A stretch of 61,319 bases of DNA, counting the filler. It is 5 parts of 5 records of this genome, joined end to end, with 100 filler letters (N's around TTAATTAATTAA, not from the genome) between each part and the next. Parts side by side here need not be neighbours in the genome. Positions count along the whole stretch, not along the records: positions 40,407 to 52,425 come from SRR20825019_2863; 4 more parts are not named here. One strand, given 5' to 3'. Below, piece by piece: positions 7,107 through 56,751 of this stretch. Below the pieces are notes generated by a model. That model saw nothing but the letters and a program-made list of their open reading frames with translations, ran no database searches and was not told the DNA's origin. The stretch's first letter is position 1, and every line of letters starts with the position of its first letter. The position numbers were made by a program, and so were the translations under genes.

Positions 7107-8561
7107 TCATTGCTGCCTGATATATTCAGGCTTGGCAGGCCGATGGATGGCGTCACACATATCTGCAAACTGCTTCATCTCCAAGACATCATGTACTCTA
7201 ATGATATCCGCCCCCTGAGCAATTGATGTCCCGTATGTCGCGGCGGTTCTAACGATCCGTTAGTAAACGTTGTGTAGAAGCAGACAACAGCTCACCCCAT
7301 GATCCGTGAGGCTTTGTCTGTAACCCGTGTAATGGTGCCGATAAATCCTTTGCGAGAAGATCCTACAAGAATGGGGCACTGGTGAACTGAAAAGCTGTCA
7401 ATGTGCCTCAATATTTCCAGGTTGTGTCTGCACAATCTCGTCAGAAACTCTGAATTATCCATGGAGTTTGGCCTACCTCATTTCTTTCCCAAATCCGATG
7501 CCCGGATCCACCATAATATTCCACCTAGGGATTCCAGTCGCCATGGCCGCAGCAACACGCTCTTCCAAAAACCGGTTAATGGCGCCAACAGCATCATCAT
7601 TAGGGTAAGATATGTTATTCTGCATAGTAGCAGTATCGGTTCCGTAGAAATGCATAAGGCATATGGGAACCTCAAGCTCAAACGCCGTTCGAAGCATATT
7701 TGGATCAAACGTAGCCCCGCTAATGTCATTAATGAAACTAGCTCCCGCCTCAATGGCAGCACGAGCTACTTCTGACTTGGTTGTATCAATTGATATAGGC
7801 ACTTCAACACCTTCCGCCCGTAGGCGCTGTATCAAAGGGACGGTCCTTGCAATTTCCTCGTCGACGGTAACCGGTACGGAACCAGGCCTCGTTGACTCGC
7901 CACCAATGTCAATGACTTCGGCTCCCTCCTTTACCATCTCGAGCGCTCGGCTGGCCCCTCTACTAAGGTCATTATGTAGTCCGCCGTCACTGAATGAGTC
8001 GGGCGTTGCGTTCAAAATACCCATAATCACTGTTGAGTCGTTAATTTTCCGTAACGACTTCGCTCCCCTTCCCAAACTGTACACACTCCGAAGCTGCGGA
8101 GACGGAAGGCTTTCCAACAGGGATTTGCACTCCAACTTTTTCACCGGGTGATACCATTCGGGAGCAATGTCACACAGCGGCTGCATGACAAATCTCCTTG
8201 TGTGACAGGCCTCGTGCGGGATCGTCAGATTCTCTGAGGAGAACTCGACATTATCATAGAAAATTATGTCAAGGTCTATACATCTAGGACCATTTCTAAT
8301 CGTTGAGAAATCTCTTCCCATTTGTTTCTCAATTGATTTCAAGTCCTCCAATAGTCCTTCTGCGCTCCTGCTCGTAGTTCCAACGATGACAGTATTCAGA
8401 AAAGCTGGCTGATCTTCAACATACTCCGGTGCACTTTCGTACAACCTTGCAGTTTTTTTGAGTGTTAAGCCTTTGTCAACCATGCAGCGTAACGCTTTCG
8501 TGATATTATATTCCCGGCAGCCAATGTTGCTCCCGAGTGCAACAACTACATTGCGTGCCAT
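7107..8561 (-). CDS. Bifunctional HPPK-dihydropteroate synthase (FolK-FolP fusion)
   Basis: ALGSNIG, NGPRCIDLDI (HPPK); MGILNATPDSFSDGG, DIGGESTRPG, DPGIGFGK, IIRVHDV (DHPS); short introns only near the 3' end. Confidence 0.95.
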
Positions 8562-9860
8562 CGACACTATCCTACTACTAGCATGACTCAGTAAGCGGTC
8601 ATATCTGAAGAGTTCCTACCGATATGGGATGACGACTGTTTGAGAGTCCGGGCGCTGCTATCAATCACCCACGGGCAGGAGTCGCGTCTGTCAGCGGCGG
8701 TTGGCACCGGCGTCCGCCCGGCGCGGCCGGGCGGCCCCGGTCCTCCGGAGATGCAATCCGGGTCCGGCTGCCGGTCCACGGAGGCGACGGGCAGGGCCGG
8801 GCCGGGCCGGAGCAGCCGGCCGGCAGGCGGCGGATACGGAGAATGGGAGCCGCCCTTTCCGTCGCCTAGGGTCAGCCATGCCCCTGGGCCCGCGACCGTC
8901 CGGTGGGCCGCGCGAGCGGCGTCACCCGTGGAGGCCAGGCGGTCCGGCGGGTGCCGCTGCCGGACGGCCACTGGCAGGCACCGCCGGGCCGGGGCCCAGC
9001 CGGCCTGCGCCAATGCTTCAAGTCCGGCGGGGGAGTGGGCGCGCCCCCGCGGACCGGACCGACCACCCCCGACGCGCGCTGGAGGGGCGGGCGGTCCCGG
9101 GCGTCGAGTACTCGAGTGCGGCGGCGGCGGCCCACCGGCACGGGGGGCCGGCGCGGCCGGCGTGGCGCCGCCGCGGGGCACGAGTATATTTGTTTCGGGT
9201 TCGATCATGAAAGGCACTTCTAATCTCATATTAATCTGCCCTTGTGATAATGTAGCGGGTCACGGGTGGACCGTGAGGATAAGGGAGCGTGATTGACACC
9301 GTACGGCCGAATGCCGGGGTGAGATTCCGTTGCCCCTGGCCTGCTGCGAGTGAGTGGTGACCCGCCGATCAGCAGCCTGATCACGGACCGGACAACAAGT
9401 GCCAAACCGGTGAAAGCCCGGCCTGACGGTGGCCCGTGGCGGGGCTATTGATCGTGGAGGACTGGACTCGCGAAACTTCGGTATCGGCGGGTCGCGAGCT
9501 CGTCCCCGCTATCGGGCCGCCAGGGTGACCCGCCCACAATCAGCGAAGCCGGGGCGAGACAGCCCAGCCTGTGACTCTGCAAGGCAAGCGTAGTACCGTG
9601 TGTCATCACTGCCGGACGCACCTTATTAGGCTACTCCCTCACTTGGTCACAGCGTCGTCTGATTACCAGCTAGCTCCTCCCTTCTCAAGACCCGGGTATC
9701 CGCTAGCGGCGTGGTTTTGATGAGACTCATGCAGCACAACAGGTACAGGACCGGGTGTGGCGTAGGTACGCAGCAGAGGTCACCGTTGGCTGAGACAGCG
9801 TGATATATAGATATGGGACAGTGAGAATGAGTCAGTGTAAAAACCAGGGCGCGCGCAGCC

Positions 9861-21684: not shown

Positions 21685-24297
21685 CTAAATCATTTCTTCC
21701 CACGGTTTGCTCAGAGCCAAGGCACAATGGATGAGGGAGACCATTACGTGTGTCTGCCATGAAGGGTTAGATGACTTTCTTAGTGGTGCATGGAGACTTA
21801 CACTTGGATAGTTGCCCCACAACTCTTGGGTGTCTGCACCAAATTCACTTGACAGCAAACCGAGGTCCGACCTTTCGTCCAGCATTTTCTCAAAGAGTTC
21901 TCTTGCTTCTTCGTCCCTACCAACTGCCTTCAAAGCACTAATATACCAGAACGTGCACACAAACATAGGATATCTTTCATTTTGCATTACCGTGGCTTCA
22001 TCCCTGTAGGTGAATTAGCAGATCTCGATTGAATCTACCGAGTAAGAGACAAACCTATACATCATGCCCTCATGCATGAGCCTTTTCTCTATTAGAGAGA
22101 GGGTAGATACAAACTTTGGGTCTGTCGCTTTGACAAAGCCAACCTGCGGTAACAACAGAAGGGATGCGTCAACCTTATCCCTACACAGCTCCTGTCACAA
22201 AGCATCTAAAACCATCTCAATGTAATATACCCATTGAACGTTGACACAAAGCTCTCGACTTCTCCATTCCAAATAACAGCAGAGATTTCTCTGTGCAGCT
22301 TTTCCGCATGTTGCCTCCAGAACTTGCTTCTATCACGAAGGCTGATCTGGTTAGCAATCTTTGCCTAGTCAAGAAAATTGGTGGATTGAGACAACTTTTT
22401 CTATCACTATATGCACGGAAACTTACTAATCGGTCACACGCGGCCCAAGACATTACAGCACAAAAGGAATCCAGCTATGCAACACTGTCGATAAAACGCA
22501 AGGATTCGACGAAGGCACATACCCTCTTCTGGGCACAATCATCTGTCAAGAAAAACCCGGTCAACTCAGGCTTATCGTACACCTCGAGAGCAATCATTCC
22601 CAGTTTCTCGAGGCAGTGATAGAGGCGAACATTTCCCGGGTGAGTAATTCTCTTGTCGAAAAAGAACTGATTTGGATAAACTCAGTGTCAAGAGTGCATT
22701 GAGATTCGCCCTATGATACACACCTGTGTTGCTGCCATGATCACGCTGCCGTATACATCTGACCTCTTGATGTCAAAAGATCTGTTGCCGTACCTCACTG
22801 GGCCACACCCTCTATAGCCTCCAAGTGATTTGGCAATGACCTCGGGAGCGGATTTTTCCATGGCGATTCCAAATACTGGATTAAACAACCCACCATCTGC
22901 CTTGTGGATAATATTTGTAAGAAAGCGAAGGAAATCCTCCAGCATCTGTACTGCTCCCAGTCGGTTAAGCGTATGAATCGTGTTGGAGGCATCGCGGAGC
23001 CAACAGAAACGGTAGTCCCAGTTCCTCTCAGCCCTGGGGTGCTCGGGGATAGATGTTGTAATTGCGGCTACGATAGCCCCACTAGCTATTTGTCAGACTA
23101 TAACGCCAGGATCCATAAAACACCATAAGGCACACCTTTCTTCGTACGTGCACATCTTCACGGTAATCGCTGCGCGAATCACAGCTTCTTGCCATTCAAA
23201 TGGCAACACCAGAGACCGCACCCAACTTTGCCAATAATCTTCCGTCTAATAACGGATTCTTAGAATCCAAGCAAACATTGCCCAATGCACAAACCTTCTC
23301 AAGAAAATCTCTGCACATGTCTGGGAGACTCCGCGTGATCATTTCGTCGGGCCCAAGAACGAAATATATCTCATCTTCCAAAATGAACTCGGTCTGAAAC
23401 AGCTGTTATGCACCGATGCCATTCCACTTGAGCTAGAGACCAGTCCATACCTCCGCAGCCACAAACGTGACAGGTGCATCGGTAGTCAAGCGAATGGTTT
23501 GGTTGGGCATGACATACTAGCAATATCATACGTGAGGTCACCGCCACAAAACGAAATAATTCCTTCTTTACCCTGATGGAGTTACTTCCGTGTGTCACGG
23601 TGGGGCGGCTTTTGCCGTACGAATGGAGGGGTCTCAAACGGACTTGAATCATCGGATAACCGGCCAGTGGCTTGACCTTACGAATGAGCATAGTTGGTCG
23701 GAAAACTCTGCCATATTGGCGGAACCTAGGTGCGAAATCGGTCACCTCAATTGCCCCTCCAACCTTGTCATATAGCTTAGTGACCTGCGCCGATCACACT
23801 TAAGACGTCTTGTCGGCAAACCACACCAACTAATTATCTCACCAAAACAGCCGAATTCTTTGAGTATCTTTGCTCCGTTCTCGCCATATTTACAATAGAT
23901 ATGCCAAAGACACCCTCATCCCTTAACAAAGGCGATCAGTCTATAGCATGACACCATACCATACCTCCTTACTTGAGCTCCCCTTTGGGTCCAATTAGGT
24001 GACAAAAAACTGGGTCAGAGTCGAGACGAGGGAAGCAGGCAAACTCAACGCTTGCATTCTTGTCAATGAGAGCAGCAAACCTCCCATTCCCGACCAAGCC
24101 TAAGTTTAGGTTTGATGGACTCTCCGGCGTATCAATTTGCCTGGGTACAAGGATAAGTTGCGGAAAGTCAAAAACACATAGGGTGTGTCACTTTTGCTTG
24201 TGCTCAGCGTTCTTGGAGTCCTTTTGCGAAGTCGACTGAAAAGTGCTGCTTGGAGCTGTTGCGGGGCGAGCAGCCTGAGCAGGAGGCTCCGCAGCAT
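21685..24297 (-). CDS. Glycoside hydrolase family 15 (bacterial-type trehalase-like), multi-exon, Arg/Leu-rich N-terminal extension
   Basis: LGLVGNG, FACFPRLDSDPVF, TDFAPRF, RNWDYRFCWLRDAS, GYRGCGPVRYGN, DLGLLSSE..LWGNYP motifs of GH15. Confidence 0.9.
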
Positions 24298-26825: not shown

Positions 26826-26925
26826 NNNNNNNNNNNNNNNNNNNNNNNNNNNNNNNNNNNNNNNNNNNNTTAATTAATTAANNNNNNNNNNNNNNNNNNN
26901 NNNNNNNNNNNNNNNNNNNNNNNNN
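26826..26925. other. Artificial contig linker (N-TTAATTAATTAA-N)
   Basis: Six-frame stop linker; composition and gene type change across it. Confidence 0.98.
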
Positions 26926-33915: not shown

Positions 33916-34015
33916 NNNNNNNNNNNNNNNNNNNNNNNNNNNNNNNNNNNNNNNNNNNNTTAATTAATTAANNNNNNNNNNNNNNNNNNNNNNNNNNNNN
34001 NNNNNNNNNNNNNNN
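33916..34015. other. Artificial contig linker
   Basis: N-TTAATTAATTAA-N. Confidence 0.98.
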
Positions 34016-40306: not shown

Positions 40307-40406
40307 NNNNNNNNNNNNNNNNNNNNNNNNNNNNNNNNNNNNNNNNNNNNTTAATTAATTAANNNNNNNNNNNNNNNNNNNNNNNNNNNNNNNNNNNNNN
40401 NNNNNN
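40307..40406. other. Artificial contig linker
   Basis: N-TTAATTAATTAA-N. Confidence 0.98.
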
Positions 40407-40902
40407 CCCCCCCCCCCCCCCCCCCCTTTCCCCCCCGTGGACACCACCTTCCAGTAGGCACAAGAACCACTCACCCGCGTGGAGCAGACTGCCCTGGGTC
40501 TTGGTGTTCACCAGGCTGGCAGAGTTTGGGCACAGACCAAGGAGGTACTCCAACACCTCGTCCGCGCACTCCGCTCCTACGCTACGGCACGCGAGGTGGA
40601 ATGGTGTCTGTGGCGGACAGTCCCGGCCGTCAGTCTTTCCGACCATTCATGGCCGGGATTGCCACCCGCCCATCGCTGACCAGCAGCACTCCCCACTCAC
40701 CTGCCCATTGGAGTTTGGCGTCGCAGCAGCCTCGGGGTCCGGCACGGCCCTACGCACGTCGTCGGCCGTGTATGCCCCGTCCTTCCACGAGGAATAAGCG
40801 TCTCTGTTCGCGGCTGTGAGGGCGGACTCGACCTGACGCAATCAGTTAGTCCTGCCTTACTGTCAACAAGGCCCGGCTTACCGCTTCGTCGCCCCCTGGC
40901 AT
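40407..40902 (-). CDS. Ankyrin-like protein, multi-exon, 3'-truncated
   Basis: MPGGDEA|VESAL...NSNGQ|TPFHLAC across GT-AG introns. Confidence 0.5.
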
Positions 40903-42230
40903 TTATCCCACACTGATGCCCTTAATGTGAAACCACCAGGGAGCGAGGTAGTTCAGGGGCGCAGGGACTACACTCCGTGCCGTGACATAATGGCCGACCG
41001 GAGTATTTGTACTTGGAAGGAGGGAGGCATACGTTTGCTCTGTCAGTGGGCGGAGGGGTCGACCTCAAGGTCGACAGAGGCCCACTCGTCGCAGTCGCCG
41101 GCATCATGGCCGCGGCGATGGGCAGGTGCGGCTCATGACTCGGCCCCACTGGGACGCCTATCGGCCCAGGTGACTCCCCAGGCTCGGGCATGCCACTGGC
41201 GGGTTGCCGGAGGCTTGAACGCGCCGGGGGGGAGCGTGGCCCCGGAGGCGCAGCCCCGCCGGCGACTCTTTGAACTGGCCCCGGCTCAGGCAGCGCCGGA
41301 CCTGGGCAGCCGTAGTGTCACTCTCTGCGGACCCGGCGGGTGTCATCACTCTCGGACTGCTTTGGCGAGGGCGCGCCCTAAGCCGAGACTACAAAACCCC
41401 GACTGCAAAAATTCGCTACATCGCTAAATTCGTAATATCGAGGGCTCATCGTCGTCGACCACCTCCCATGCGGTGTCTGGCTGGTGTGAGGCACTCGTGA
41501 ATGGTGAACTTGCCGTTCCGGGTAAGGGCCCAACACACGTTGTGACCCGTGCTCGCATGGAGCAGTCCAAGCCGTTGGTCGGCCCGACGATGCCATCAGC
41601 CGGCCTGCATGCTAATGACTGAGTGCGCCGATCGACGAGGCTCCGGCGCTACCACGCCAGGCTCCCGGTCGCCCCCAGGGGCTGCCCGCCGGCCGGCCGC
41701 CCGGCCCGTGCCAGCACTGCCCGGCCGCGCGGCACGCGACCGCAAGGCCTGCCGCGGCCCGTCCCCTGCGGGGCCGGGTGGAGGTTCACGGCAGCTCGGA
41801 GACAGTCGTGACCCGTCACGGCCCCGGGCCCGGCGCGGCGGGTAAGAGGCCCGCTGAACCGCTGCGAGCTAGGAGCGCTCTGTGGTCTGCCCCCCGGGCC
41901 GGGGCCGCGGCCGCCCCGGACCGAGACCGAGGCCACCAAGAAGGCAGAACAGGCCTTGACGGAGCCTGCCAAAGTTGCGAAGGCACTGACCGCATGGCGT
42001 TCCGCGGCGGAGAAATTGACGAGCACCACCAGCGGCCGAGCACGCGGCGCCGGCGCGTCGCCGGGGCGGGACGCCGGGCGGTGGTTCATTAGGCGTTGGC
42101 GGGACTGTTGCTCCTAGCCGGACAGACGTGTCCTCGCGCGACCCCGGGTCTACAAGTATATGGGTGGAGTGATGCGCTGGGCAATCATCCTAGTTAGGTC
42201 TTCCTATTCCAAGGCATTGTCGTTGACGCC

Positions 42231-45200
42231 ATGTCTCAGGTAATGCGCGCGGGTTTGGTCGGGTTAATTTCCTAATGCTGTGGACAGGGTGGGAGGAATC
42301 CGTTTGCAATGAGCGGCCCGCCGCCGCCACCAACTGCGGCCGCGATGAACCAGGTCGCACAGCAGCAGCCTCAGCAACCACAGCAGGGTTATGGCCAGCC
42401 GCCCGCTCCGGTAAGATTGCCGCTTGATCTTTCTTTCTTTCTTTCTTTTTTTTTTCTTTTTTATCGGGTCGTTCTGACGGGCGGGCAGGGATACGGGCAG
42501 CCTGGAGGCTTCGCACCCCCGGGCGGACCGCCCCAGCAGTTCGGGGCACCACCTCCAGCCATGGGTGCCCCCGCTGCGCCGCAGGGGAACTACGGAGGCT
42601 TTGCTCCTCCTCCGGCCGGCGCAGCGCCTGGTGGAATGGCACCTCCCCCTGGGCCTCCGGGACCTGGCCAGTTCGGCGCTCCACCCCCCGGGCCACCCCA
42701 GGCTGGCTTTGGCGCCCCGCCTCAAGGCCCTCCGCAAGGCCCTCCGCAAGGCCCGCCCCAGGGACCACCGGCCGGCGGTGCAGCCCCTGCTGCCGCCCCG
42801 CCTCAGCCTCAGGTATTGACCTCAGTGCGTGTAGAGCGTGCACCGTGTTCTGATGGTCCGGGCGCAGGTTGCCTTTTATAACCCTGCCACCGGCCAGGCT
42901 GGCGCCCCTCCTACCTCTACTGCACCCCCTGCTGCCGGACCTCCCAAGCCTGACTACAGGTACGGGTTCGAGCCCAGTAGGCAAACACATCTAATTTTTT
43001 TTTCGCCCCCTTTGCAGCGTGCCTTCTGCGTTTGGTGGTGATGGTGACAATTGGGGTGCTCCTCCGACTGGCCCCCCGGGGCCCGGTCAGGCGCCGGCCC
43101 CTGGCGGCGCCGCCCCGCCGATGTACAACCCTGGAGTTGCGGGTAACCAAAATAATGGGTACAACTGCTATGAGTGGTCTCGACTAATGCATCTCAACAG
43201 GAGGCCCCGCCGCTCCGCAGCGCGCCGGAGCGCCCCAGCAGCAGCAGTTGATCGACAACTTCATGACGCTTAATATCAGCGGCGGCGCCCAGGGCCCGCC
43301 TGGGTCCAATGCCCCTGCGGGCCCCGACCCCGCCACCCTCCCGCGCCCTGATACTCTTGTGGACGACCCTGCGAACTCAACGGTACGAAGTGAAATATTG
43401 ATGGATCCAGTTGTGGGTTAGGGTTAGGTGGGGTTCCGGGCTATCGTCCGCTGTGATGGATTCAACTGCTATGTTTTATCGATGTATTTATATTTCCAGC
43501 TTTTCTGCGTGCTGACCATTCTTTGCCTCAGGCGCCTAAGGTGGTCAACCCCTACATGAGAATGACGACAAACGTTATCCCCGAGACCGCCACCTCCCGC
43601 CTCAAATCTGGCATTCCTCTCGGCGCTGTGGTGCAGCCCCTTGCCCGCCCGGTGGATGGCAAAGATATCCCAGTCGTCAATTTTGGTGCCAGTGGGGTAA
43701 TCCGCTGCCGTCGCTGCAGGACCTACGTCAACCCGTAAGTTCCCCCCGGTAATCCCGCCGCCGCGCGGCCTGACCGCGCATTGTCTCTAAATATAGATAC
43801 GTTTCATGGATGGACAATGGGCGCCGGTGGAGGTGCAATCTGTGCTCGCTGCTCAATGACGTTCCGGGAGACTACTTCTGCACGCTTGATGCTGATGGAC
43901 AGGTGGGCTTGGCCTTCGTTGTAGGGGGATAAATCGTTACTTAATGTGGTCTTGTAGCGTCTGGACAAGAACGACCGCGCCGAGCTCTCTTGTCCTAGCG
44001 TGGAGTTTGTTGCTCCCCAGGAGTATATGGTCCGGCCCCCGCAGCCGCCGGCGTATCTCTTCGTAATTGATGTCTCCGCCAAGGCCGTTCACACCGGCAT
44101 GGTGGCGGATGCCGCCAATGCGATCCGCGGGTGAGTTCTGTGCCCGCACGTGTAATAGAATTTTTTTTTTTTGGGGGGGATGTGGCGAGGAGATGATGAC
44201 AGATTCGATCTTGAGATTGGAAACTGATCCTGTGTGATGCAGCGTTTTGGATAGGTTGCCCGGCGGGACCCGCACTCAGGTCGGCTTCGTGACCTTTGAC
44301 AACGCGATCCACTTCTACAACCTCAAGTCCTCTCTCACGCAGCCTCAGATGCTGGTGATATCCGACTTCACCGACATATTCCTACCAACCGTCAACGACG
44401 AGCTCCTTGTGAACCTCTGTGACTCGCGCGAGGTGGTGGACTCGTTCTTGGATCGGTTGCCGACGATGTTCAACCAGACCCAAATCGTCGAGAACTGCCT
44501 CGGCCCCGCCCTCAAGGCTTCGTACACGCTGCTCCAGGCTATTGGCGGCAAGATGCTGGTGTTCCAGAGTGGTCTGCCCACCCTGGGCATGGGTCGCCTG
44601 GCAAACCGTTCCACTGTCACCCAGGCACCGGGCGCCAAGGGCGGCGCCGGATCGAACTTGGTGAGTGCCGTTTGACAGCTGATTTTGTGCGATAGATGTT
44701 ATGGATATTGTGGTGTCGATGTATAGAATACTATGGTTCCGAAAGTGATCTAACGGCTATTTTTGTAGCTTTTGTCCGAGGAGAAGTTCTTCAAGAATCT
44801 GGCTGTGGAGTGCAGCCGGCAGCAGATCTGCGTAGACATGTTCCTGTTCAGTGACCAGTACACGGACGCCGCCACGCTTGGCTCCCTGCCCCGCTTCACT
44901 TGTGGAGACTTGTTCCACTACAGGGGCTATCTCTCCGCTCGGGACGGGCCGAAGTTCACGTCGGAGCTCCAGAACGTGCTGACACGCGAGACGGGATGGG
45001 AAGCGGTGATGAGGATTCGTTGCACCAAGGGTCTCAAGATCTCCAACTTTTACGGTCACTTCTTCATCCGCGGCACAGACCTCCTGGCCCTGCCCAACGT
45101 GGACAGCGACAAGGCCTTCGCGGTCCAGATCACCCACGAGGAGCAGGTGCTGGCCGCCGGCAAGGCCAGCATGCAGTGTGCCCTCCTATACACAACCTCC

Positions 45201-46445
45201 AGCGGCGAGCGAAGGATTCGGGTTCACACCATCTGTCTTGATATCACGGCCAACTATGGTGGTATGTCACCGGTGTCCAAGTGCCGCGGAAATTTTGCTA
45301 ACGCCGGGCTGCAGATCTTTTCAAGTGTGCGGACGCGAACGTAATTGCGAACCTTACGGGCAAGATGGTTATTGACCGAGTGTTCCACACGGCCAACATA
45401 CAGGTCCGCGTGATTGTGGCCCCTCGGTGATATCCGATGTCCTGACCCACCGATGTTTATATTCCACAGGCATCTCGGGAGGAATTGCAGAACAAGTGCC
45501 AAGAGATTCTCGGTGCGTACCGGAGTGCGTGCAGCAACTCGTACAAGGCAGCCAACCAGCTTATCTTCCCCGAATGTGAGTGCGATTGAAATCCTATCTC
45601 AATGTGGATTGGTTCCGTTCGAGACCTAAGTGTTTTTTTTTTTTTTTTTTTTTTCCAGCTTTGAGGCTCCTACCATTGAACACGCTTGCAATGATGAAGA
45701 ATTTGTGCGTGCGCATGGACCAGGAGATCACCCCCGACGACCGTGTGGTGGCCATGGAAGTAGGTTTGTGGGGAGCCTCGCCGATTCATTCTCTGATACA
45801 TGTTCCTTTGTAGCGGTTCACCACAATGCCGGTGTCGGGATCCATCCCCTACATCACCCCGCGTCTGTTTGGTGTGCACGAGCTGCCCGCTGGCGTCGGG
45901 GAGCCCAGTGAGAATGGCGCCATTAAGCTGCCGCCCCTTGTCCCACTGACTCGCGACTGCCTCAACCCCGCTGGATGCTACCTGCTGAACAACGGTACGG
46001 ATTTTAACGGGCGGCTCATTTTGGGCGTTGGAGGCACTTACGTTTTCTCTACTGACAGGCCTCGAGTCCATTCTGTGGATCGGACGTGAACTTCCGGGCA
46101 ACCTTTTGCAGTCATTGTTTGGTGTCGGGAATATGGACGGGGTCAACTATACCGTGCCCAACTTTGTTCGCGATCAGGGTAATCCCCACTCGCAGAAGTT
46201 GATGGCCATCATCAACACGCTCCAGAACCTCCATCCGCCTTTCCAGAACCTGACTGTCGCACGCCAGGGCGATGTGACCGAAGCAAGGGTAGGTCGGATT
46301 CGATTCCTCGCATTGCCATGCTAATTTTTTTTTTTTTCCCTCTCAGTTCCAGACCTTCCTGCTCGAGGACCGATCGCAGACCATGATGGGTTACGGCGAG
46401 TTCCTTGCCCACCTGCATCGCATCATCTCTTCGAAGCCCATGTGA
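42231..46445 (+). CDS. SEC24: COPII coat protein Sec24, multi-exon
   Basis: Pro/Gly-rich N-terminus; Zn finger [66 protein letters not shown]. Confidence 0.95.
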
Positions 46446-46565
46446 TCCGTAGTATACCCGTAGACACTCAAATGAAAGGTCCCCTATTGGGGAGTTTGTG
46501 AATATGGTTTTGTTGTGGCAGCCAAGGGCTTGTTTATATTGAGAGCACACACTAGGCCCGTGCGA

Positions 46566-49500
46566 TCACTTCGCGGTGCTCTTGTTATTCACAGTGGACT
46601 TATGGAACAGCATGGTTGCGTAGCTGGGTAGCGGCCACAGGCCAGCATCAGTCACCATCTCCAGCTCGTCCGCTGTCCGCCTTAGCTCATCCATCGCCGT
46701 CAGGACATCGTCGCGGCAGGAATAGCACTTGGCAATCATCTCCGCCAGCGAGCTCTCAGGCATGGCCATAGTCTTGCCATGTGCCGATTCGACCCCCTCC
46801 AAATTGGCATCAAGCTGATCCAAAAGCTCGCCCATGGTCCTGGCCAGTGTCATGGCCGAATGGTTGGTAAGACCGATAGCCTTGAAGCTGCTGGCGGCGT
46901 CGGCGACCTCCTTCGTGGCACGGAGGGCGGCCGGGCGGATGACCTTCTTGACCATGTTGATGCTCGTGAGAGCCTCGATGTTGATGGTCTGTTCCGAACC
47001 ACAGCGTGAGATTCACACCACTGAACCCGCCCTTCAACGCACCTTAATATAGGTCTCGGCCTGAATCTCCGCGCGGGCCTCCAGCTCAGCGGCTGACAGC
47101 ACACTGGTGCGCTCGAACAAGGCGATGTTGGTATCGTTGTATATAGTCTCTACGGCCCTCGGCGTTGAATCGAGGTTGGGAAGGCCGCGCTTGGCCGCCT
47201 CCACCTTCCACTCATCCGAGTAATTGTTGCCGTTCATGATCACCCGGCTGTTATTGCGCGCGACGTCACTGCACAGTGCCTGTGGATACCACAAGTTAGA
47301 TCAAGCTCAAGCAGCCGCTAGGTCGCCATATGGCTCTTACAGTGGCCTTGACGTGGACTGCGTCGAGGTCGGCACACTTCTCCAGCTCAGCCGCGAATTC
47401 GGCCAGGACGTCGGCAACAATGGTATTGATGATAGTGCAGGGATTAGCCACGGTCTGGGACGAGCCCTGTGCTCACGAGGGATCAGCCCCATCTCAACGC
47501 CCCTCGACACTGTCATACCGGCATTCGGAACTCAAACTTTTGGCCCGTGAATGCGAACGGGGATGTGCGGTTGCGGTCGGTCGAGTCCTTGGGCAGCGGA
47601 GGGAGGGACGAGACGCCCAGCTCAATGTTCCCCCCGGAGGTGGACGACTTGAGCTCGGAGCGGGCCAGCTGGTCCATAATATCTGGAACCGACGCACTGT
47701 CAGCCACGCAATCCGGCCGGCCACGAGCGGGGCAACCGCGGTCACCACCGCTGCTGTTGCCACAAAACCTGCTAGTCTACACACCTTGCAACTGAGTTCC
47801 GAGGAACACCGATATGATGGCGGGGGGCGCCTCATTCGCTCCAAGACGATGATCGTTGGCCGCGGTCGCCACGGAGGCGCGGAGGAGGGAGGCGTGCCTG
47901 TCCACGGCACGGATGATGGCGCACTGTTCCGGTCACCCACACGTCAGCTGAGCACGGCACATTTGAGACCACATCCACTTGAGACCATACCAGGAAGGTG
48001 AGAAACACAGCATTCTCATGAGGAGTCTTGCCTGGCTCAAGAAGGTTGATGCCGGTGTCCGTGCTCATGCTCCAGTTGTTGTGCTTCCCGGATCCGTTCA
48101 CACCAGCGAATGGCTTCTCATGCAGCAAGCACACGAAGTTGTGTCGGGCCGCAACCTTCTCAAGTGTTTCCTAAGACACATCGCATCAGTTCCCTCATCC
48201 AAATAGAAAAGAGTTGGATTCCACCAATCCGATGCGGGCGATGGGAAGGTCGTACCATGACGAGCTGGTTCTGGTCGCACGCTACGTTGAGGGTGGTGAA
48301 CACGGGGGCGAGCTCGTACTGGGATGGGGCGACTTCGTTGTGCTGGGTCTTAGCGGTGACGCCCAGGGACCACAGCTCATTGTTGAGCTCCGACATGAAT
48401 GACGCTACGCGCTCGTGAAGGTGCCCTGGAAGCGGCGATTAGAACAACAGTGTCACAACACGCAAAGAACCACCGTGGCAGATCACATGAGGAAAGGACC
48501 GCGATGCCACCACTGCGGCTGACCGGGTTTGGAGCTGACGGACGGCCGCACTGGCTGGCCTCCGGCTCAACAAGCCCGCGGGCCGCCAATGACCGGATGA
48601 TGAATAGACGGGGCGGGCGGTACTAGAGGGGGGGCCGCTGGGGCCATGCACTCACCAAAGTAGTGGTCATCCATCTCCTGGCCCTTAGGTGGGCTGGCAC
48701 CAAATAGCGTGCGGCCGGTCAGCATCAGGTCGAGGCGCTGGTCGAACAGATCCAGGTCCACTAGGAAGTACTCCTGCTCGGCACCCATCGTGGCGGTCAC
48801 GGACGTAGCCGTCTTGTCACCAAACGCCCGGATGATGCGGAGAGCCTGTTTGTTGAGGGCGTCCATGGACCGCAAGAGAGGCGTCTTGGTATCAAGGGCG
48901 TGGCCAGTGAAGGAGCAGAACGCGGACGGGATGAACAGGGTGGTGTTGGAGCCATCGCTTTTGACAAATACGGGCGAGGTACAGTCCCACGCAGTATAGC
49001 CGCGAGCCTCGAAGGTGGACCGGAGTGAACCGCTTGGAAGGGAGCTGGCGTCGGGCTCACCTGTTGTCATGGCGTTAACCAGCAGTGACTATGGTATATA
49101 CTATGGTTGCTTACCTTGGCTGAGCTCCTTTCCGCTAAACTCCATGATGGCGGTGCCGTTGTTGATAGGGTTGATGAACGAGTCATGCTTCTCAGCAGTC
49201 TCTCCGGAGAGAGGCTGGAACCAGTGGCAGAAGTGAGTCGCGCCCTGCTCCAGGGCCCAGTCCTTCATGGCAGCAGCAACGGCATCGGCAAGAGCTGCGG
49301 GCCAGCGACTGTTAGAAGGATAACGATAGACACCAACTATAGTCGGCTATTTTTTACGTGGCTCTGCACTCACCTGGCGTCATCTGGGCCTTGCCCTTAA
49401 TCACCTGCTGGAGCTCCTTAAAGTTGGCCTTAAGCATACGGTTCCTGCGGGTCCGTCATTCGCCACCCTCGCCACCCCAGTCGGCCCTGGGTTCTCACCT

Positions 49501-49575
49501 CATCACGTTCTCGTTGAAGGTCCGCCGGCCGAAAAGGTCTGGGACGGCGTCACGGTCGTGGGATTCTTTACTCAT
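46566..49575 (-). CDS. Glutamine synthetase type III, multi-exon
   Basis: [80 protein letters not shown]. Confidence 0.95.
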
Positions 49576-50167
49576 CGTTGGAGACAAACACTACTGTCGT
49601 AGCAACATCACCACTTTCGTCGAAGCGATAAATATAATCTGGTTGCCATGGTTCTCAGCTACCTGACACAGCCTCAGTTTCCCAACGCACAACATGTACC
49701 ACAGTGCCACACGCATAGTGTGACACGGCGGGGCCGCCGAGGCCGCGCAAGGGCGGGACCGGGGGGCCGCCACCGGTCTGTGGGCGGCCCGGGAGGGCCC
49801 CGCGGCGGGACTGCTGAGGGTGCGGCCTGCCCTCATCGGCCGGCCCGGGCGAGGCTGGCGGGTTCGGAAAAATTACGGAAGACTGAGGCGATGTTACATG
49901 TTGCGTTTCTTAGCCACACACACTGAAGCAGCGCTCCCGTAATGAGGGTGATGCTGGCCTCGTCCGGTCACCATGGAACCGGGTGAGACGCGGGGCCTCA
50001 CCACTGTGCGGACAAAGACGGCCAGTATGGTCTTGTCAGAACCGGTTGGCCCCATTGAATCGACGGGGGAGCATAGACGGTCACTCACCAGTATGGGATT
50101 GTTCATGTCCATGATAGTCGTAGTCACGAGATTGATCGTTTATTCGAGACAGACGAAAAAAAAAAAA

Positions 50168-50277
50168 TGTCTCCACCCCGATTCGAACAGGGACTACCAC
50201 GTAATAGCGCATTCTTGTAGGCTGGACAAGTCCTGCCTCAAGAAGAATTGGCGTGCGACCAGTTACACTATGGAAAC
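50168..50277 (-). ncRNA. tRNA-like Pol III gene A (110 nt) with anticodon arm replaced by a long hairpin
   Basis: Acceptor GTTTCCA/TGGAGAC+A, D-stem GTGT/GCAC, T-arm CCCTG-TTCGAAT-CGGGG; TATAAA at -29; T12 terminator directly downstream. Confidence 0.8.
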
Positions 50278-50372
50278 AATTTTGTGAGGGTTAGTTTGCA
50301 TTTATACTCCGAAATCAGATCCAGACGCCAGACTCGTCCGCCTCACTGGGGAAAAAAACAAAGTAAACTTCA

Positions 50373-50491
50373 TGCCTCCACCCCGATTCGAACAGGGACT
50401 ACCACACTAGTATGATTCGCTCTTGCAGGCAGGCCAATCATGACCAGCCTGTAAGAGAAGTTGGTGTGCGACCATCTTACACTATGGAGGC
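50373..50491 (-). ncRNA. tRNA-like Pol III gene B (119 nt), paralogue of A
   Basis: Acceptor GCCTCCA/TGGAGGC+A, same D-stem and T-arm; TATAAAA at -29; T7 about 15 nt downstream. Confidence 0.8.
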
Positions 50492-50685
50492 GAATTAAAG
50501 TGCAGGAAAGTGATTTTATATTGGTTAGAGGTCTTCCTAGACGGATTAGACGACTAACTCAGACCTCAAACTGCAAAAGGAGGTGCGCCCCAAGTGGCGC
50601 CTGACTACCGCCACTCCCGGCCCCGGGCGGCAGGTCTCACGAAGTCAGCTGACCTCACCCGGTCGAACTTCAAGTGGCGGTCGTG

Positions 50686-52039
50686 TCACAACTGCCCATT
50701 GGCAGCGGCCGCTCTTGTCGCCTCGTGGCTGGCGCCCTGGCAATGGGCATCTCGCCACAGTATGGACGGCCTGGCGTCCAACTGACCATCCCCGGCGATA
50801 GTATATCGGATGAACAGAATCCGCACCGTCGCAATACGGAGGGCTTCACAGTGTCCCCCCCTCGACAAACTGATTCTGCATGCAAGCACGGGCACAGGTG
50901 TCGCACCTCCAGACCGCCTCTCTTAGGAACTCGGGGAAGGTTGAAGGAGATATACACGCCGCTGCAGTCTAGCCTTGAGAATATGAGCTCTTACAGCATC
51001 GAACCGCGAAGATCAGTCATCAACGCTTGACACGATACAGGTCCCCATATAATGGGTCGGGCGGGTCAGGGTACACCTGCCGCGCCTTCTTCTCGCGAAT
51101 CTCGTGCACCACAGTGCGAAACATGCCCAGAAGTACCACCGACCCCACGAGTGCGAGTCCACCTGTGCCAAAAAAAAAAAAAGAAGGGATTGTGACTTAG
51201 AGATTCGAACCCGGAGTAACAAGGGCGAGTGGCCTTACCCAGAACCCAAATGACCACCGCGGCGACAACGATGGGGAAAAACAAAATGACGAACGTGATA
51301 GTTAGAGCAGCCAAGACGATCACAGTCGCAAGAACGATCGCGATGACCAGCAATATTATTATCAATATTATCAGTAAGACTGCACAGCAAGCGGTTAGAT
51401 AATGGCTTCACTCCTACAAGGGCTGCGATTCTAGGGAGGAGGCGACCCCCACGCCCTTGCACTGTGGTGGGCAAGCGGTTGGTCGGGTTAGGGAACCTTA
51501 CCTGTTGCAAGTGTGAGAAGCAACAGCGTGAGAATTATAAGGCCCAGCACACAGGGCCAAAACCCAATGATGAGTATCATGGTTAGCCAGTATTGAGCTG
51601 GAGAGAAGTGTCAGGCTCGTCAGCGGTCAATCGTCAACAAACTCAACGCCCACTGAACAACTACAGCCTCAGGTCCCCGCCTCCACATACCCCGTTGTTC
51701 CCACCGCACCAAGGTGACTACACAACATGACTACATAGATCTCTCACTGACGTGTGGTAAGATAGCTGAACGGCGGGTAACTCGAAGGGAAGTACCACAC
51801 CACATTGAAAAGAGATATGAAGCTGCCCATGGTAAGATATCTGCCCTCGAGTGCCCGTGCCCCGACGAGGCGGCCCAACCACCTCCTGGAGTCTCCTTAC
51901 TCTCCCGAACACAGGGCCCCGTGCAGTAAGCCGCACCAGCCCGGCTGGTCAGTGTGAAATGTGTGGGGACTCGTATATCAGTAAAACAAGAGTTCTGGGC
52001 CGCCGTCCGGCTCACGACTGGCGGAGTGGTGGTGCTCAT
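50686..52039 (-). CDS. Uncharacterised multi-exon membrane protein (3' end uncertain)
   Basis: Very hydrophobic exons (IIILLVIAIVLATVIVLAALTITFVILFFPIVVAAVVIWVL) linked by GT-AG introns. Confidence 0.5.
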
Positions 52040-52425
52040 CGTCTATGGTAGCCTGGCCGCGCGGCTGGCAGCCGGGCCCTGAGTCACAGTCGGTGAGCGG
52101 CGGGTGCCGTGTCGGTGCCGGCCTGGGAGTCCCAGGCCACCGTGGAACGGGGGGGCTGGGCCTGGCCCGGCCATCCCCGCCTCAGGCAGTGATGTGCGCC
52201 CACCGCTGACTTGACGGCGCCCCTCCTCGGCGAAAATCGGTGCGCACTCACCCCGAGGGCCGGGCCGCCCTGGCCGGACCGGCCCGGGGGCGGCCATCCC
52301 GGCCGGGGCTGCCGACCGGCCTGGGGCGCCCCCCCGGCCGGGGGGCCAGTGCGCCGGGCCGGGCTGGGGCCCGGCCGAGGCGCCCGGCGGGGCCGCTCGC
52401 CCTCCCCCCCCCCCCCCCCCCCCCC

Positions 52426-52525
52426 NNNNNNNNNNNNNNNNNNNNNNNNNNNNNNNNNNNNNNNNNNNNTTAATTAATTAANNNNNNNNNNNNNNNNNNN
52501 NNNNNNNNNNNNNNNNNNNNNNNNN
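52426..52525. other. Artificial contig linker
   Basis: N-TTAATTAATTAA-N. Confidence 0.98.
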
Positions 52526-52727
52526 AGAAGCTAAAAAAGAAGTGATTAAAAGTATTGTTTAAGAGCAATTTCTTTTAGAATTTATAAAAAGCAAATCCGT
52601 TGAAAGATACAGATTTGCTTTTGTTTTTTAGAGACATTTTTTTCAGAATAAATTAAACAAGAGGCATTTGCTTAACAGTAAAATGTGCGCTATATTTGCA
52701 TCAAAATTGTTCATAATTTTATTGAAC

Positions 52728-52853
52728 GTTATCAAGAAAGGTGTAGGGATTAGACCCGCAGAAGCCTTAGCAACCCTTTATGTACTTCAATTAACAAGGA
52801 AGTTTTCTTAGAGAAGGTGCTACGTTCTACCGTAGATAATACGGACAGATAAC
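52728..52853 (+). promoter_or_regulatory. SAM-I (S-box) riboswitch
   Basis: GTTATCAAGA...GCAACC...GGTGC...GATAAC upstream of metH; Bacteroidota -7 promoter TATATTTG at 52691; TCTTGATA at 52885-52892 can sequester the P1 5' strand. Confidence 0.9.
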
Positions 52854-52954
52854 AAAAAGACTTCCTTTTTTTTATTTCACACCCTCTTGATATACATATT
52901 ACAAATTACGCTTTGAAGCGTATAATTATTTTATACTATTTTAAGTAGAACTGA

Positions 52955-53962
52955 ATGAAGGATATTAGAAAAGAACTCGAAAAGAGAATTTTAGTGCTCG
53001 ATGGAGCTATGGGAACGATGTTGCAGCGCTATAAATTTACTGAAGAAGATTTTCGTGGAGAGCGTTTCAAGGACTTTGAACACCCTTTGCAAGGGAATAA
53101 TGACCTGTTGTCTTTAACCCAACCAAAGGCAATTGCAGAAGTTCATGCAAAATATTTTGAGGCTGGAGCAGATATTATAGAGACCAATACATTTTCTGGG
53201 ACTACTATTGCAATGGCCGATTATCATTTAGAAGATATTGTTTACGAATTAAATTACGAATCTGCTAAAATTGCTAAGCAAGTAGCGGATAAATTTACTG
53301 CAGAGAATCCTGAGAAACCTCGTTTTGTAGCAGGTGCTATGGGACCTACAAATAGAACAGCAAGTATGTCTCCAGATGTTAACGACCCAGGGTATCGAGC
53401 AGTTACTTTTGATGAACTTCGTATTGCATACAAGCAACAAGTAGAAGGGTTGGTAGATGGTGGAGTGGATGTTTTATTAGTAGAAACTATTTTTGACACT
53501 CTAAATGCTAAAGCAGCTTTATTTGCAATTGAAGAAGTAAAAGAAGAGCGAGGAATTGATATTCCAATTATGGTAAGTGGTACAATTACGGATGCTTCAG
53601 GGAGAACTCTATCAGGACAAACTGCAGAGGCTTTTTTAATAAGTATATCTCATATTCCACTTTTAAGTGTAGGTTTTAATTGTGCACTTGGAGCCGATCA
53701 ATTATTGCCATATGTAAAACGATTATCGCAGCAATCGCCTTTCTATATTTCAGCTTATCCAAACGCAGGCTTACCAAATCATTTTGGAGAATATGATCAA
53801 ACAGCTAAAGAAATGCAAAAATTGGTGCGTAATTATATGGAAGAATATGTGGTGAATATTGTAGGAGGATGCTGTGGAACTACTCCAGATCATATAAGGT
53901 TATTGTCGGAAATAGCTTCGGAATTTGAGCCAAGAAAAGTAGTAGTTGAGAGCTATAATTAA
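52955..53962 (+). CDS. metH: B12-dependent methionine synthase, homocysteine-binding module (split MetH, N part)
   Basis: LDGAMGTM, ETNTF, GFNCALG, PNAGLP, GGCCGT. Confidence 0.95.
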   Translation: MKDIRKELEKRILVLDGAMGTMLQRYKFTEEDFRGERFKDFEHPLQGNNDLLSLTQPKAIAEVHAKYFEAGADIIETNTFSGTTIAMADYHLEDIVYELNYESAKIAKQVADKFTAENPEKPRFVAGAMGPTNRTASMSPDVNDPGYRAVTFDELRIAYKQQVEGLVDGGVDVLLVETIFDTLNAKAALFAIEEVKEERGIDIPIMVSGTITDASGRTLSGQTAEAFLISISHIPLLSVGFNCALGADQLLPYVKRLSQQSPFYISAYPNAGLPNHFGEYDQTAKEMQKLVRNYMEEYVVNIVGGCCGTTPDHIRLLSEIASEFEPRKVVVESYN

Positions 53963-54006: not shown

Positions 54007-54097
54007 ATAAAGAATAAGGAAGGACTATAAACGATGAACGACGAACGAATAACGAATAACGATAAACGAAAACCGAAAAGCGAAAAACGAAAACCGC
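54007..54097 (+). repeat. Degenerate heptamer tandem repeat (consensus about NNAACGA, 10-13 units)
   Basis: taaacga tgaacga cgaacga ataacga ataacga taaacga aaaccga aaagcga aaaacga aaaccgc. Confidence 0.85.
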
Positions 54098-56751
54098 TAG
54101 TTTTATCTGGTTTAGAACCTTTGGTAATTGATGGGAACACCAATTTTGTAAATGTTGGAGAGCGAACTAATGTTACAGGTTCTCGAAAATTTCTTCGATT
54201 AATTAAAGAAGAAAATTTTGACGAAGCATTAGAAGTAGCAAGAGCTCAGGTGGAAGGAGGAGCACAGATCATCGATGTAAATATGGATGAAGGGATGCTC
54301 GATGGGAAATGGGCAATGGTGAAGTTTTTAAATTTGATTGCTGCGGAGCCAGATATTGCACGTGTTCCAATTATGATAGATAGTTCTAAATGGGACATCA
54401 TAGAAGCTGGACTTCAAGTTACGCAAGGTAAAGGGATAGTAAATTCTATCAGTTTAAAAGAAGGAGAGCCAGAGTTTATAGAGCGAGCAAAATTGATAAA
54501 ACGTTACGGAGCAGCTGTAATTGTAATGGCATTTGATGAAGTTGGTCAAGCAGATTCTTACGAAAGACGAATTGAAATTTGTAAGCGTTCTTACGATATT
54601 TTAGTTGAGAAAGTTAAGTTTTCTCCTCAGGACATTATCTTCGATCCAAATATATTTCCAGTAGGAACAGGGATGGAAGAGCACCGTCAAAATGCGGTAG
54701 ATTTCTTTCGTGCTACTAAATGGATTCGGGAAAACCTTCCTCATGCGCATATTAGTGGAGGAGTGAGTAATGTGTCGTTTTCCTTCCGTGGAAATAATAC
54801 AGTAAGAGAAGCAATGAATGCTGCCTTTTTGTATCATGGAATACAGCATGGAATGACTATGGGGATTGTAAATCCTGAAATGTTAGAGATTTATGATGAA
54901 ATAAATAAAGAATTATTAGTTTACATTGAAGATGTACTCCTTGATCGAAGAGAGGATGCTACAGAGCGTTTACTTGATTATGCTGAAACGGTAAAAGGCA
55001 ATGGAAAAGTAAACGAAAAGCAAGCGCAAGAATGGCGTAGTGGTACTTTACAGGAACGAATTACGCACTCCTTAGTAAAAGGAGTTTTAGAATTTGTAGA
55101 GGATGATGCAGAAGAGGCTCGCCAAGCAGTAGATAAACCCATTGAGGTTATCGAAGGGTATTTAATGAATGGAATGAATGTAGTTGGAGACCTCTTTGGA
55201 AGTGGGAAAATGTTTCTGCCACAGGTAGTAAAATCTGCTCGTGTAATGAAGAAAGCAGTAGCTTATTTATTACCATATATCGAAGCAGAAAAAGATGAGA
55301 GGTCTCGATCAGCCGGAAAGGTTTTAATGGCAACCGTAAAAGGAGATGTTCATGACATAGGAAAAAATATTGTAAGCGTTGTTTTAGGTTGTAATAATTA
55401 TGAAATTGTAGACCTTGGAGTGATGGTGCCGCCAGAAAAAATAATTCAAGCGGCTATAGACCAAGAGGTAGATATTATAGGGCTTAGCGGACTTATAACG
55501 CCATCGTTGGATGAAATGGTTTATCTGGCTAAAGAGTTAGAGAAATTAAATTTAAATATTCCAGTAATGATAGGTGGGGCTACAACTTCACGTGCGCATA
55601 CGGCTGTAAAAATTGCTCCTGAATATTCTAAAACTGTAGTCCATGTAAACGATGCTTCTCGTGCTGTAAATGTAGCAGGAAGCCTAATGAATCCGAAGCT
55701 GAAAGAAGCTTATGGTGTTTCATTAAGAAGTGAATATGATAAACTCAGAGAAGGATTTTTGAATCGTTCTCGTGAGAAGAACTTCTTAACCATTGAACAG
55801 GCTAGAAAGAATAAATTACAATTAAATTGGGAGGAATTTACGCCTGAAAAACCAAATTTTATTGGGGTGAAACAGGTGGAAATTTCTTTAGATAAATTAA
55901 GACCATATATAGATTGGACTCCTTTTTTTAGATCGTGGGAATTACATGGAAAGTATCCTGCTATTTTAGAAGATGAGGTAGTTGGTACCGAAGCTACAAA
56001 ACTATTTGCAGAGGCTACAACAATGCTAAATAGTATTATTGATGAAAAGTGGCTTACCGCAAAAGGGATTTTAGGGATTTTTCCTGCAAATCAAGTAGAT
56101 GATGACGATATACAATTGTATGACGAAGCAGGGAAAGAGTTGAATAAATTCCTAACCTTACGTCAGCAATCAGAAAAAAATAAGCGTGCTTCTAATATAG
56201 CATTGGCAGATTTTATAGCACCAAAAGAAATTGGAAAACAAGATTATGTGGGAGCTTTCTGTGTTACAACTGGTTTTGGAGTAGACGAAATATCTGATAA
56301 ATATGTTAAAGATTTAGACGATTATAATTCGATAATGATTAAAGCACTTGCCGACCGATTAGCAGAAGCCTTTGCAGAGTATTTGCACGAGCAAGTTCGT
56401 AAAGAAATTTGGGGGTATGATTCTGATGAGAAGTTGTCTAATGAAGAGCTTATTAAAGAGAATTATAAAGGGATTCGTCCGGCTCCAGGATATCCTGCTT
56501 GTCCAGATCACTTGGAGAAAAAAGTAATTTGGGAAGTTCTAAATGTAGAAGAGGAAATAGGAGTGAAGTTAACAGATAGCCTTGCCATGTGGCCAGCATC
56601 ATCAGTATCAGGGTACTATTTTGCTAATCCTGAAAGTAAATATTTTGGTTTAGGGAAAATTAAAGAAGACCAAGTTGCCGATTATGCAAAGCGTAGAAAT
56701 ATTAGTATTGAAGAGGCCACAAAATGGCTAAATCCTAATATTGCGGATTAG
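54034..56751 (+). CDS. metH: B12-dependent methionine synthase, folate/cobalamin/AdoMet modules (split MetH, C part)
   Basis: [42 protein letters not shown]. Confidence 0.97.

Follow-up and report, generated by a model that had tools for sequence, protein, structure and literature searches.

Two tandem loci of a eukaryotic contig, here called gene A and gene B, carry a tRNA body in which the anticodon arm is replaced by a long hairpin. Neither RNA can decode, as the anticodon arm is not only replaced but also not restored by any single excision. The feature is real and unusual, and its function is putative. Judged from the sequences, we read the pair as tRNA-derived, non-decoding RNAs that would be transcribed by RNA polymerase III and display a hairpin on a tRNA body, and we give this reading about an even chance of being correct. 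It fits best because body, promoter, and terminator are intact, because there is no decodable arm, and because pairing has been kept by compensatory changes. The window, which is the whole stretch of DNA that was analyzed, comprises 61,319 bases and consists of five contigs joined by linkers of the form N44-TTAATTAATTAA-N44. The positions of all features of the pair and its host contig are collected in Table 1.

Both genes have a 7-bp acceptor stem (GTTTCCA/TGGAGAC in gene A, GCCTCCA/TGGAGGC in gene B) that is followed by the discriminator A, a D stem GTGT/GCAC, and a variable loop of 4 nt (TAGT). G18 and G19 as well as T8 and A9 are present, and the tertiary-pair nucleotides are intact at the U8/A14, G18G19/T55C56, A15/T48, G53-C61, and T54/A58 positions. 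Gene B is the longer copy in three places, namely in the D loop (by 1 nt), in the hairpin, and in the loop 3' of it. The acceptor and the D arm presumably resemble those of eukaryotic tRNA-Val. With an insert allowed and at the default threshold, ARAGORN called both genes (2/2), and these were the only 2 calls in the 61-kb window; as exactly these two loci were called, the tRNA body is confirmed. Reading the sequence thus reproduced what the original prediction had described, namely two minus-strand genes with a 7-bp acceptor stem that differs in pair 2:71, the discriminator A, the D stem, the T arm, and a TATA element at exactly -29 in both. The predicted oligo-T terminator was also found, in the form of a T12 run directly after gene A and a T7 run 15 nt after gene B. 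Further upstream, two or three GTCT(R)(R) motifs per gene lie some 20-45 nt ahead of the TATA box (about -50 to -60). As a candidate PSE/USE-like element, these repeats were dismissed as not significant, since 1117 of 5000 shuffles did as well.

Table 1. Positions of the two genes, their elements, the host contig, and the linkers, counted along the window.
Feature	Position	Strand	Description
Gene A	50277..50168	-	110 nt, tRNA-shaped
Gene B	50491..50373	-	119 nt, second copy, matching architecture
T arm/B box, gene A	50176..50192	-	CCCTG TTCGAAT CGGGG; within a 30-nt stretch identical in both genes
T arm/B box, gene B	50381..50397	-	CCCTG TTCGAAT CGGGG
Hairpin, gene A	50212..50244	-	RNA nt 34-66; 13 pairs, one bulged A, one A.A mismatch, CUUG loop
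Hairpin, gene B	50420..50457	-	RNA nt 35-72; 15 pairs, A.C and U.U mismatches, UGAU loop
TATAAA, gene A	50301..50306	-	starts at -29 (50306)
TATAAA, gene B	50515..50520	-	starts at -29 (50520)
T12 run, gene A	50156..50167	-	directly 3' of the discriminator; Pol III terminator-like
T7 run, gene B	50352..50358	-	15 nt past the discriminator; Pol III terminator-like
GTCT motifs, upstream of gene A	50326-50333, 50333-50340		
GTCT motifs, upstream of gene B	50542-50551, 50551-50564		
Host contig	40407..52425		12,019 bp, 60% GC; eukaryotic nuclear DNA
Sec24 exons	about 43.5-46.3 kb	+	Pfam; tblastn exon maps
Type III glutamine synthetase exons	46599-49575	-	Pfam; tblastn exon maps
Linkers	26826-26925, 33916-34015, 40307-40406, 52426-52525		N44-TTAATTAATTAA-N44

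The segment from the D stem to the variable loop measures 56 nt in gene A and 64 nt in gene B, counting nt 26, so that 55 and 63 nt stand where a tRNA has an anticodon arm of 17 nt. In both copies the order of the insert is CCA, 4 unpaired nucleotides, the hairpin of 33 nt (A) or 38 nt (B), 12 (A) or 15 (B) unpaired nucleotides, and TGG. Folding agreed with the predicted replacement of the arm by a CCA/TGG stem, an asymmetric loop, and a long hairpin. The hairpin of gene A has a minimum free energy of -14.7 kcal/mol (z -4.6) and that of gene B one of -21.8 kcal/mol (z -5.6), and in both cases 0 of 2000 shuffles were as stable. When the cloverleaf helices were enforced, both genes folded as modelled, with -36.3 kcal/mol for A and -46.9 kcal/mol for B; the folding of the whole molecule was matched by 8 of 200 shuffles for A and by 1 of 200 for B. 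The small 3' hairpins that appeared in the constrained folds (nt 70-85 in A, nt 76-91 in B) were discarded, as they use non-homologous bases. A guide RNA of the H/ACA or C/D type within the insert was likewise rejected, as inspection by eye found no ACA box and no C/D boxes.

Standard tools do not recognize the loci as ordinary tRNA genes. Run without introns, ARAGORN found 0 genes in the window, and its tmRNA search of the window also yielded 0 genes. The Rfam tRNA model RF00005 gave no match at the gathering score, and none at E<=10 either, whether with the 901 nt around the genes or with each gene alone; in the latter search, only weak unrelated Rfam matches with E values of 0.5-9.5 were obtained. 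ARAGORN and Rfam, both of which had been suggested as checks on the original prediction, returned no confident match to an ordinary intron-containing tRNA. With introns, ARAGORN read gene A as Asn(ATT) by assuming an insert of 40 nt at 31/32 or, when the intron was fixed at 37/38, as Lys(CTT) with the acceptor stem shifted by one nucleotide, and it read gene B as Lys(CTT) with a 26-nt insert and a 22-nt extra arm. These intron readings are forced and disagree between copies and settings. The Lys-CTT reading places the stems in different registers in A and B (2-nt shift) with only 3-4 pairs, and it was dropped because the long hairpin lies in the same register in both genes and its outermost pair covaries. 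The 127 calls across the window that were made at a lowered threshold (-ps80) were noise.

The excisions that could in principle restore an anticodon arm lead to the same conclusion. Among the single excisions leaving a 17-nt arm, which we checked by hand, none gives a 5-bp stem with a 7-nt loop: the 5' side (CCAAT or CCAAC) and the 3' side (CGTGG or TGTGG) form three Watson-Crick pairs that are followed by A.G and pyrimidine-pyrimidine mismatches. Canonical excision leaves only the pairs 27:43, 28:42, and 29:41, with C33 in A and U37 in both copies, and positions 34-36 then read TTC in A and CTC in B, exactly the nominal Glu anticodons with three stem pairs and a pyrimidine (T) at 37 that had been foreseen. 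Excision after CCA gives the 5-bp stems that had also been foreseen (CCACG/CGTGG in A and CCACA/TGTGG in B); the loops have 6 nt (CTATTA and TACTAG), and the U33/R37 pattern is not conserved in them. A strict scan for bulge-helix-bulge motifs returned 1 match per gene, fewer than the averages of 2.5 and 2.9 in shuffles, and these matches lie at non-homologous places and would cut through the D loop or the T arm, in agreement with the prediction that no such motif is present. The alternative that had been offered, maturation to a working tRNA by non-canonical splicing or editing, found no support, as there is no bulge-helix-bulge motif, the ARAGORN readings are inconsistent, and the loops have 6 nt.

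The loci could still be working tRNA-Glu genes (UUC and CUC) with introns of about 38 and 46 nt at 37/38 that are removed by an endonuclease with a ruler mechanism despite the weak stem. This would explain why both nominal anticodons specify Glu, although two triplets composed only of T and C agree on the amino acid one time in four. It also matches the pairing of the canonical nucleotides 34-38 with the 3' end of the hairpin, which resembles the pairing of an anticodon with its intron, and the covariation of nt 34 with its hairpin partner (U-A in A, C-G in B), as in anticodon-intron helices. The D-arm 10-mer ATAGTGTAAC is also contained in a published S. cerevisiae tRNA-Glu primer (PMC11594727). 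Furthermore, PMC13578239 describes green algae whose tRNA sets are rich in introns and whose tRNA introns can be long (about 64 nt in Ostreococcus tauri), and the Sec24 of our contig is nearest to green-lineage proteins among the matches listed. Against working tRNAs stand the stem of only three Watson-Crick pairs that canonical excision leaves in both copies, C33 in copy A and U37 in both, and the lack of any match to the Rfam tRNA model. In addition, a continuous helix would enclose the 5' splice site, there is no bulge-helix-bulge or bulge-helix-loop motif common to the copies, and ARAGORN with the intron at 37/38 calls Lys, and this only by the one-nucleotide shift of the acceptor. We therefore consider functional tRNA-Glu genes improbable. 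The preferred reading as non-decoding hairpin RNAs has to accommodate that a Glu-reading UUC/CUC pair and the covariation of nt 34 are also expected of an anticodon-intron helix in two tRNA-Glu isoacceptors, which counts against it, as does the fact that there are only two sequences.

The contig that harbors the pair is eukaryotic nuclear DNA, as it contains exons of Sec24 and of a type III glutamine synthetase, has ordinary introns of the GTGAGT...TAG type, and shows no long bacterial-style ORFs between 40407 and 52425. The glutamine synthetase gene is on the strand of the pair, and its start codon follows gene A downstream at a distance of about 0.6 kb. A Sec24 exon was 52-65% identical to the matches listed in the protein collection (at least 120), of which the best named ones came from trebouxiophyte green algae, and the Atlas clusters nearest to Sec24 were mostly Streptophyta/Chlorophyta; a close sequenced relative of the host eukaryote was not found among the matches listed for this exon. 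One glutamine synthetase exon showed 71-79% identity to the matches listed (at least 120), and the named ones were bacterial, mostly Planctomycetota, so that these matches do not help in placing the host organism. The intron-bearing glutamine synthetase could be a candidate for an old gene transfer or could simply be strongly conserved. Between gene A and the glutamine synthetase start, there is a GC-rich hairpin at 49944-50005 on the minus strand, which gave weak matches at chance level to two microRNA models (E 0.34 and 3.8). Runs of about 20 C at 40407-40426 and about 22 C at 52402-52425 form the ends of the contig and look like a sequencing or assembly artefact.

The window as a whole mixes at least one eukaryote with bacteria, and the stretches neighboring the host contig are bacterial; the GC contents of its five parts are, in order, 0.51, 0.54, 0.31, 0.60, and 0.34. 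A prokaryote genome (G001) that has about 29% of the window's words in common had no match to the two-gene locus. A look through public sequencing runs turned up no RNA run that contains the locus. Contigs of two public runs from one study, with 0.14 (X1) and 0.05 (X2) of words in common, cover 49936-50062 and 50505-51100, which is outside both genes. The low-GC contig that follows the host contig carries a SAM (S-box) riboswitch at 52726-52855 on the plus strand (68 bits, E 1e-13), with ORFs downstream at 52955-53962 and 54034-56751, the second of which encodes a B12-dependent methionine synthase; this layout is an ordinary bacterial arrangement. In the first contig, an ORF at 7473-8567 on the minus strand encodes a fusion of HPPK with a pterin-binding (DHPS-type) domain.

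Within the 61-kb window, there are no further copies of the gene or the hairpin beyond the two. A 24-mer of the 3' half that is common to both genes occurs 2 times in the window, as compared to 0 times in 100 shuffles, and a T-arm-like match at 22975-23024 turned out to be a chance similarity within another contig. An exact 29-mer and an exact 22-mer of the 3' half each had 0 loci in the prokaryotic contig collection, and no homologues were detected in the prokaryotic, viral, or metagenomic collections, which hold almost no eukaryotic genomes. A gapped pattern of the scaffold that allowed an insert of 45-75 nt matched 28 metagenome and 6 viral loci. None of these 34 loci (0/34) agreed with the pair in its acceptor stem, its CCA/TGG stem, or its hairpin, and they were rejected as homologues; they are unrelated tRNAs that carry a long variable arm or some other insert. 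With a gap of 15-45 nt, the pattern matched 3 loci in viral contigs, all of which were phage tRNA(UCA) genes in tRNA clusters and did not help in assigning the isotype. A literature search by words and by short strings from the window, supplementary files aside, found no natural eukaryotic RNA of such a design.

The comparison of A with B suggests that the two copies are old but constrained. The flanks (95 nt upstream and 80 nt downstream) align no better than shuffles (z 1.8 each), and despite these diverged flanks ATATAAA stands in an identical register in both genes; across the contig, TATAAA has only 6 occurrences in 24,038 positions. The copies are identical over 30 nt in the 3' part of the tRNA body, which could result from gene conversion, and the 5' part of the body differs at 5 places. 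The insert is far more changed than the tRNA body, but in a structured way. In the acceptor stem, pair 2:71 changed on both sides (T-A in A, C-G in B), and at 3:70 gene A has T.G where gene B has C-G. In the hairpin, the outermost pair changed on both sides from U-A in A to C-G in B, an inner A-U pair of A is U.G in B, gene B has a C-G pair where gene A has the bulged A, and a G-C pair of A is replaced by A.C in B. A 1x1 mismatch is kept at the same place, as A.A in A and U.U in B, so that the folding bears out both the compensatory changes and the conserved mismatch of the original prediction. In a post hoc test, for which the helices were defined on the same two sequences and transition bias and gene conversion were ignored, 8 substitutions on 64 paired bases broke 1 pair, and random placement broke at most one with P=0.0005 (200,000 trials); the corresponding values were P=0.022 for the hairpin alone (5 substitutions) and P=0.024 for the acceptor alone (3 substitutions, 0 pairs broken). 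These figures are indicative and not a proof. The term "selected non-decoding tRNA-derived ncRNA family", which had been used for the pair, is kept in part: a non-decoding, tRNA-derived hairpin RNA is the best fit, whereas two copies, with no homologue in the prokaryotic, viral, or metagenomic collections, do not make a selected family.

Another possibility is that the loci are relics that have no function as RNA. In this case, a tRNA gene of old age, maybe with an intron or a small palindromic insert, would have lost its anticodon arm and then been duplicated. The copies would now be slowly decaying pseudogenes or be kept as DNA only; they might, for instance, serve to bind TFIIIC/TFIIIB within the promoter region of the glutamine synthetase gene. 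The anticodon arm is indeed destroyed alike in both copies, and as the defects A30.G40, the pyrimidine-pyrimidine opposition at 31:39, and T37 are shared, the arm was already non-canonical before the duplication. The absence of homologues from the prokaryotic, viral, and metagenomic collections searched points in the same direction, and so does the presence of a Pol II gene 0.6 kb downstream on their strand. Retained A and B boxes and a retained TATA element alone are, in addition, what a site that binds factors at the DNA level would show. What neither a DNA role nor neutral decay predicts, however, are the compensatory changes in the acceptor stem and the hairpin. The T-run after each gene and the tertiary-pair nucleotides that were kept beside flanks diverged beyond alignment are not predicted by the relic scenario either. 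Moreover, the loci are not SINE-like in structure, as the acceptor closes and the gene ends, there is no unrelated body or tail, and there are no flanking direct repeats or target-site duplications, the only direct repeats being those from gene to gene. On balance, we regard relics as unlikely, though with a probability that deserves to be taken seriously.

A quite different possibility is that the tRNA body serves only as a vehicle from whose middle the product is excised. This product would be a small RNA derived from the hairpin or, alternatively, a stable (circular) intron RNA comparable to the metazoan tricRNAs. The hairpin structure is the conserved part of an otherwise fast-changing insert, and tRNA-driven small RNAs are known from the gammaherpesvirus tRNA-miRNA units and the tricRNAs. 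But 13-15 pairs do not suffice for a 21-nt duplex, and since the copies differ in both arms, there is no conserved guide sequence; nor is there a motif resembling a bulge-helix-bulge at which an endonuclease could cut. We consider such an excised product very improbable.

For the preferred reading, in which the hairpin is displayed on the tRNA body, a plausible course of events can be proposed. Both loci would be independent RNA polymerase III genes that descended from a class-I tRNA gene, possibly one that carried an intron. The parent likely was an intron-bearing tRNA gene, since nucleotides 34-38 pair with the 3' end of the hairpin, nt 34 covaries, and UUC and CUC both specify Glu. TFIIIB with TBP would assemble on the TATAAA element at -29, and transcription would stop in the T-run, as the sequence signals suggest. 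Since the upper body of the tRNA is preserved in all its elements, the transcript is expected to be a substrate of RNase P and RNase Z and to acquire CCA, and its binding and export would be those of a tRNA. Where a tRNA has its anticodon arm, the predicted RNA has 3 bp of CCA/TGG, an internal loop of 4 x 12-15 nt, and an irregular hairpin of 13-15 bp with a tetraloop. The product would be a stable, tRNA-shaped RNA of 110 or 119 nt, whose body would provide transcription, processing, and stability. The hairpin would be the working part, most likely a putative protein-binding element.

If stable RNAs are indeed produced from these genes, this would mean that the principle of the "tRNA scaffold" is also used by cells, which would rely on the tRNA body for transcription, end processing, CCA addition, and export when delivering a structured RNA that is unrelated to it. 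A concrete route from an intron-containing tRNA gene to a new non-coding RNA would then be available as well. As standard tRNA and Rfam annotation overlooks genes of this type, the class could be under-counted in protist genomes. We tentatively propose, as a rather doubtful idea, that a natural and selected class of eukaryotic "cargo tRNAs" may exist, perhaps in several protist lineages. These would be Pol III RNAs that reuse tRNA biogenesis and export to display a hairpin and that arose from an intron-bearing tRNA whose anticodon-intron helix froze into a permanent arm. If the loci are relics instead, they are a useful caution on reading selection from two copies.

The pair shares with ordinary nuclear tRNA genes (type-2 Pol III genes), whether or not these carry a 37/38 intron, the 7-bp acceptor, the discriminator, the D and T arms with their tertiary-pair nucleotides, and the A and B boxes, and also the upstream TATA-like element, the T-run terminator, and the tandem arrangement. 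It differs from them in that there is no anticodon stem-loop, neither directly nor after a single excision, no RF00005 match, and no consistent reading of the insert. In a tRNA-derived SINE, the tRNA head is followed by an unrelated body and a tail, whereas both genes end with acceptor, discriminator, and T-run. Vault RNAs (RF00006) and related Pol III genes of the type-2/type-3 hybrid kind give transcripts of about 90-140 nt; they combine tRNA-like A and B boxes and a TATA element upstream of the gene with a stem that closes the 5' and 3' ends and a variable central domain. Of these features, the A and B boxes, the upstream TATA element, and the closing terminal stem are found in the pair as sequence signals, but the pair has kept the complete tRNA cloverleaf body, and neither gene, searched alone, matched RF00006 at E<=10.

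The tRNAs with ectopic or bulge-helix-bulge introns and the permuted tRNA genes of red and green microalgae resemble the pair in being eukaryotic nuclear genes that unusual inserts hide from standard finders (PMC13578239, PMC3728597); however, they have bulge-helix-bulge motifs and yield a normal cloverleaf once spliced, and the pair has neither. Like the pair, the tRNA-like domain of tmRNA combines acceptor and T arm with a long helix that stands where the anticodon arm would be (PMC3985003). In contrast to the pair, tmRNA is bacterial, has about 360 nt and an mRNA part, and carries the alanine identity G3:U70, where the pair has U.G (A) or C-G (B) at 3:70. The mascRNA and the gammaherpesvirus tRNA-like RNAs are also tRNA-shaped without serving decoding and are processed by tRNA enzymes. 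Unlike the pair, mascRNA is cut from a Pol II transcript and has about 60 nt; in the gammaherpesvirus units the hairpins lie downstream of the tRNA-like part, whereas in the pair the hairpin lies inside. In the engineered "tRNA scaffold", a cargo helix replaces the anticodon arm and the body gives processing and stability (PMC3753655, PMC3401473), but this is a laboratory construct in bacteria and the pair consists of natural eukaryotic genes. The closest in design to the pair are vault RNAs, the tRNA-like domain of tmRNA, mascRNA, the viral tRNA-like RNAs, and the engineered tRNA scaffold.
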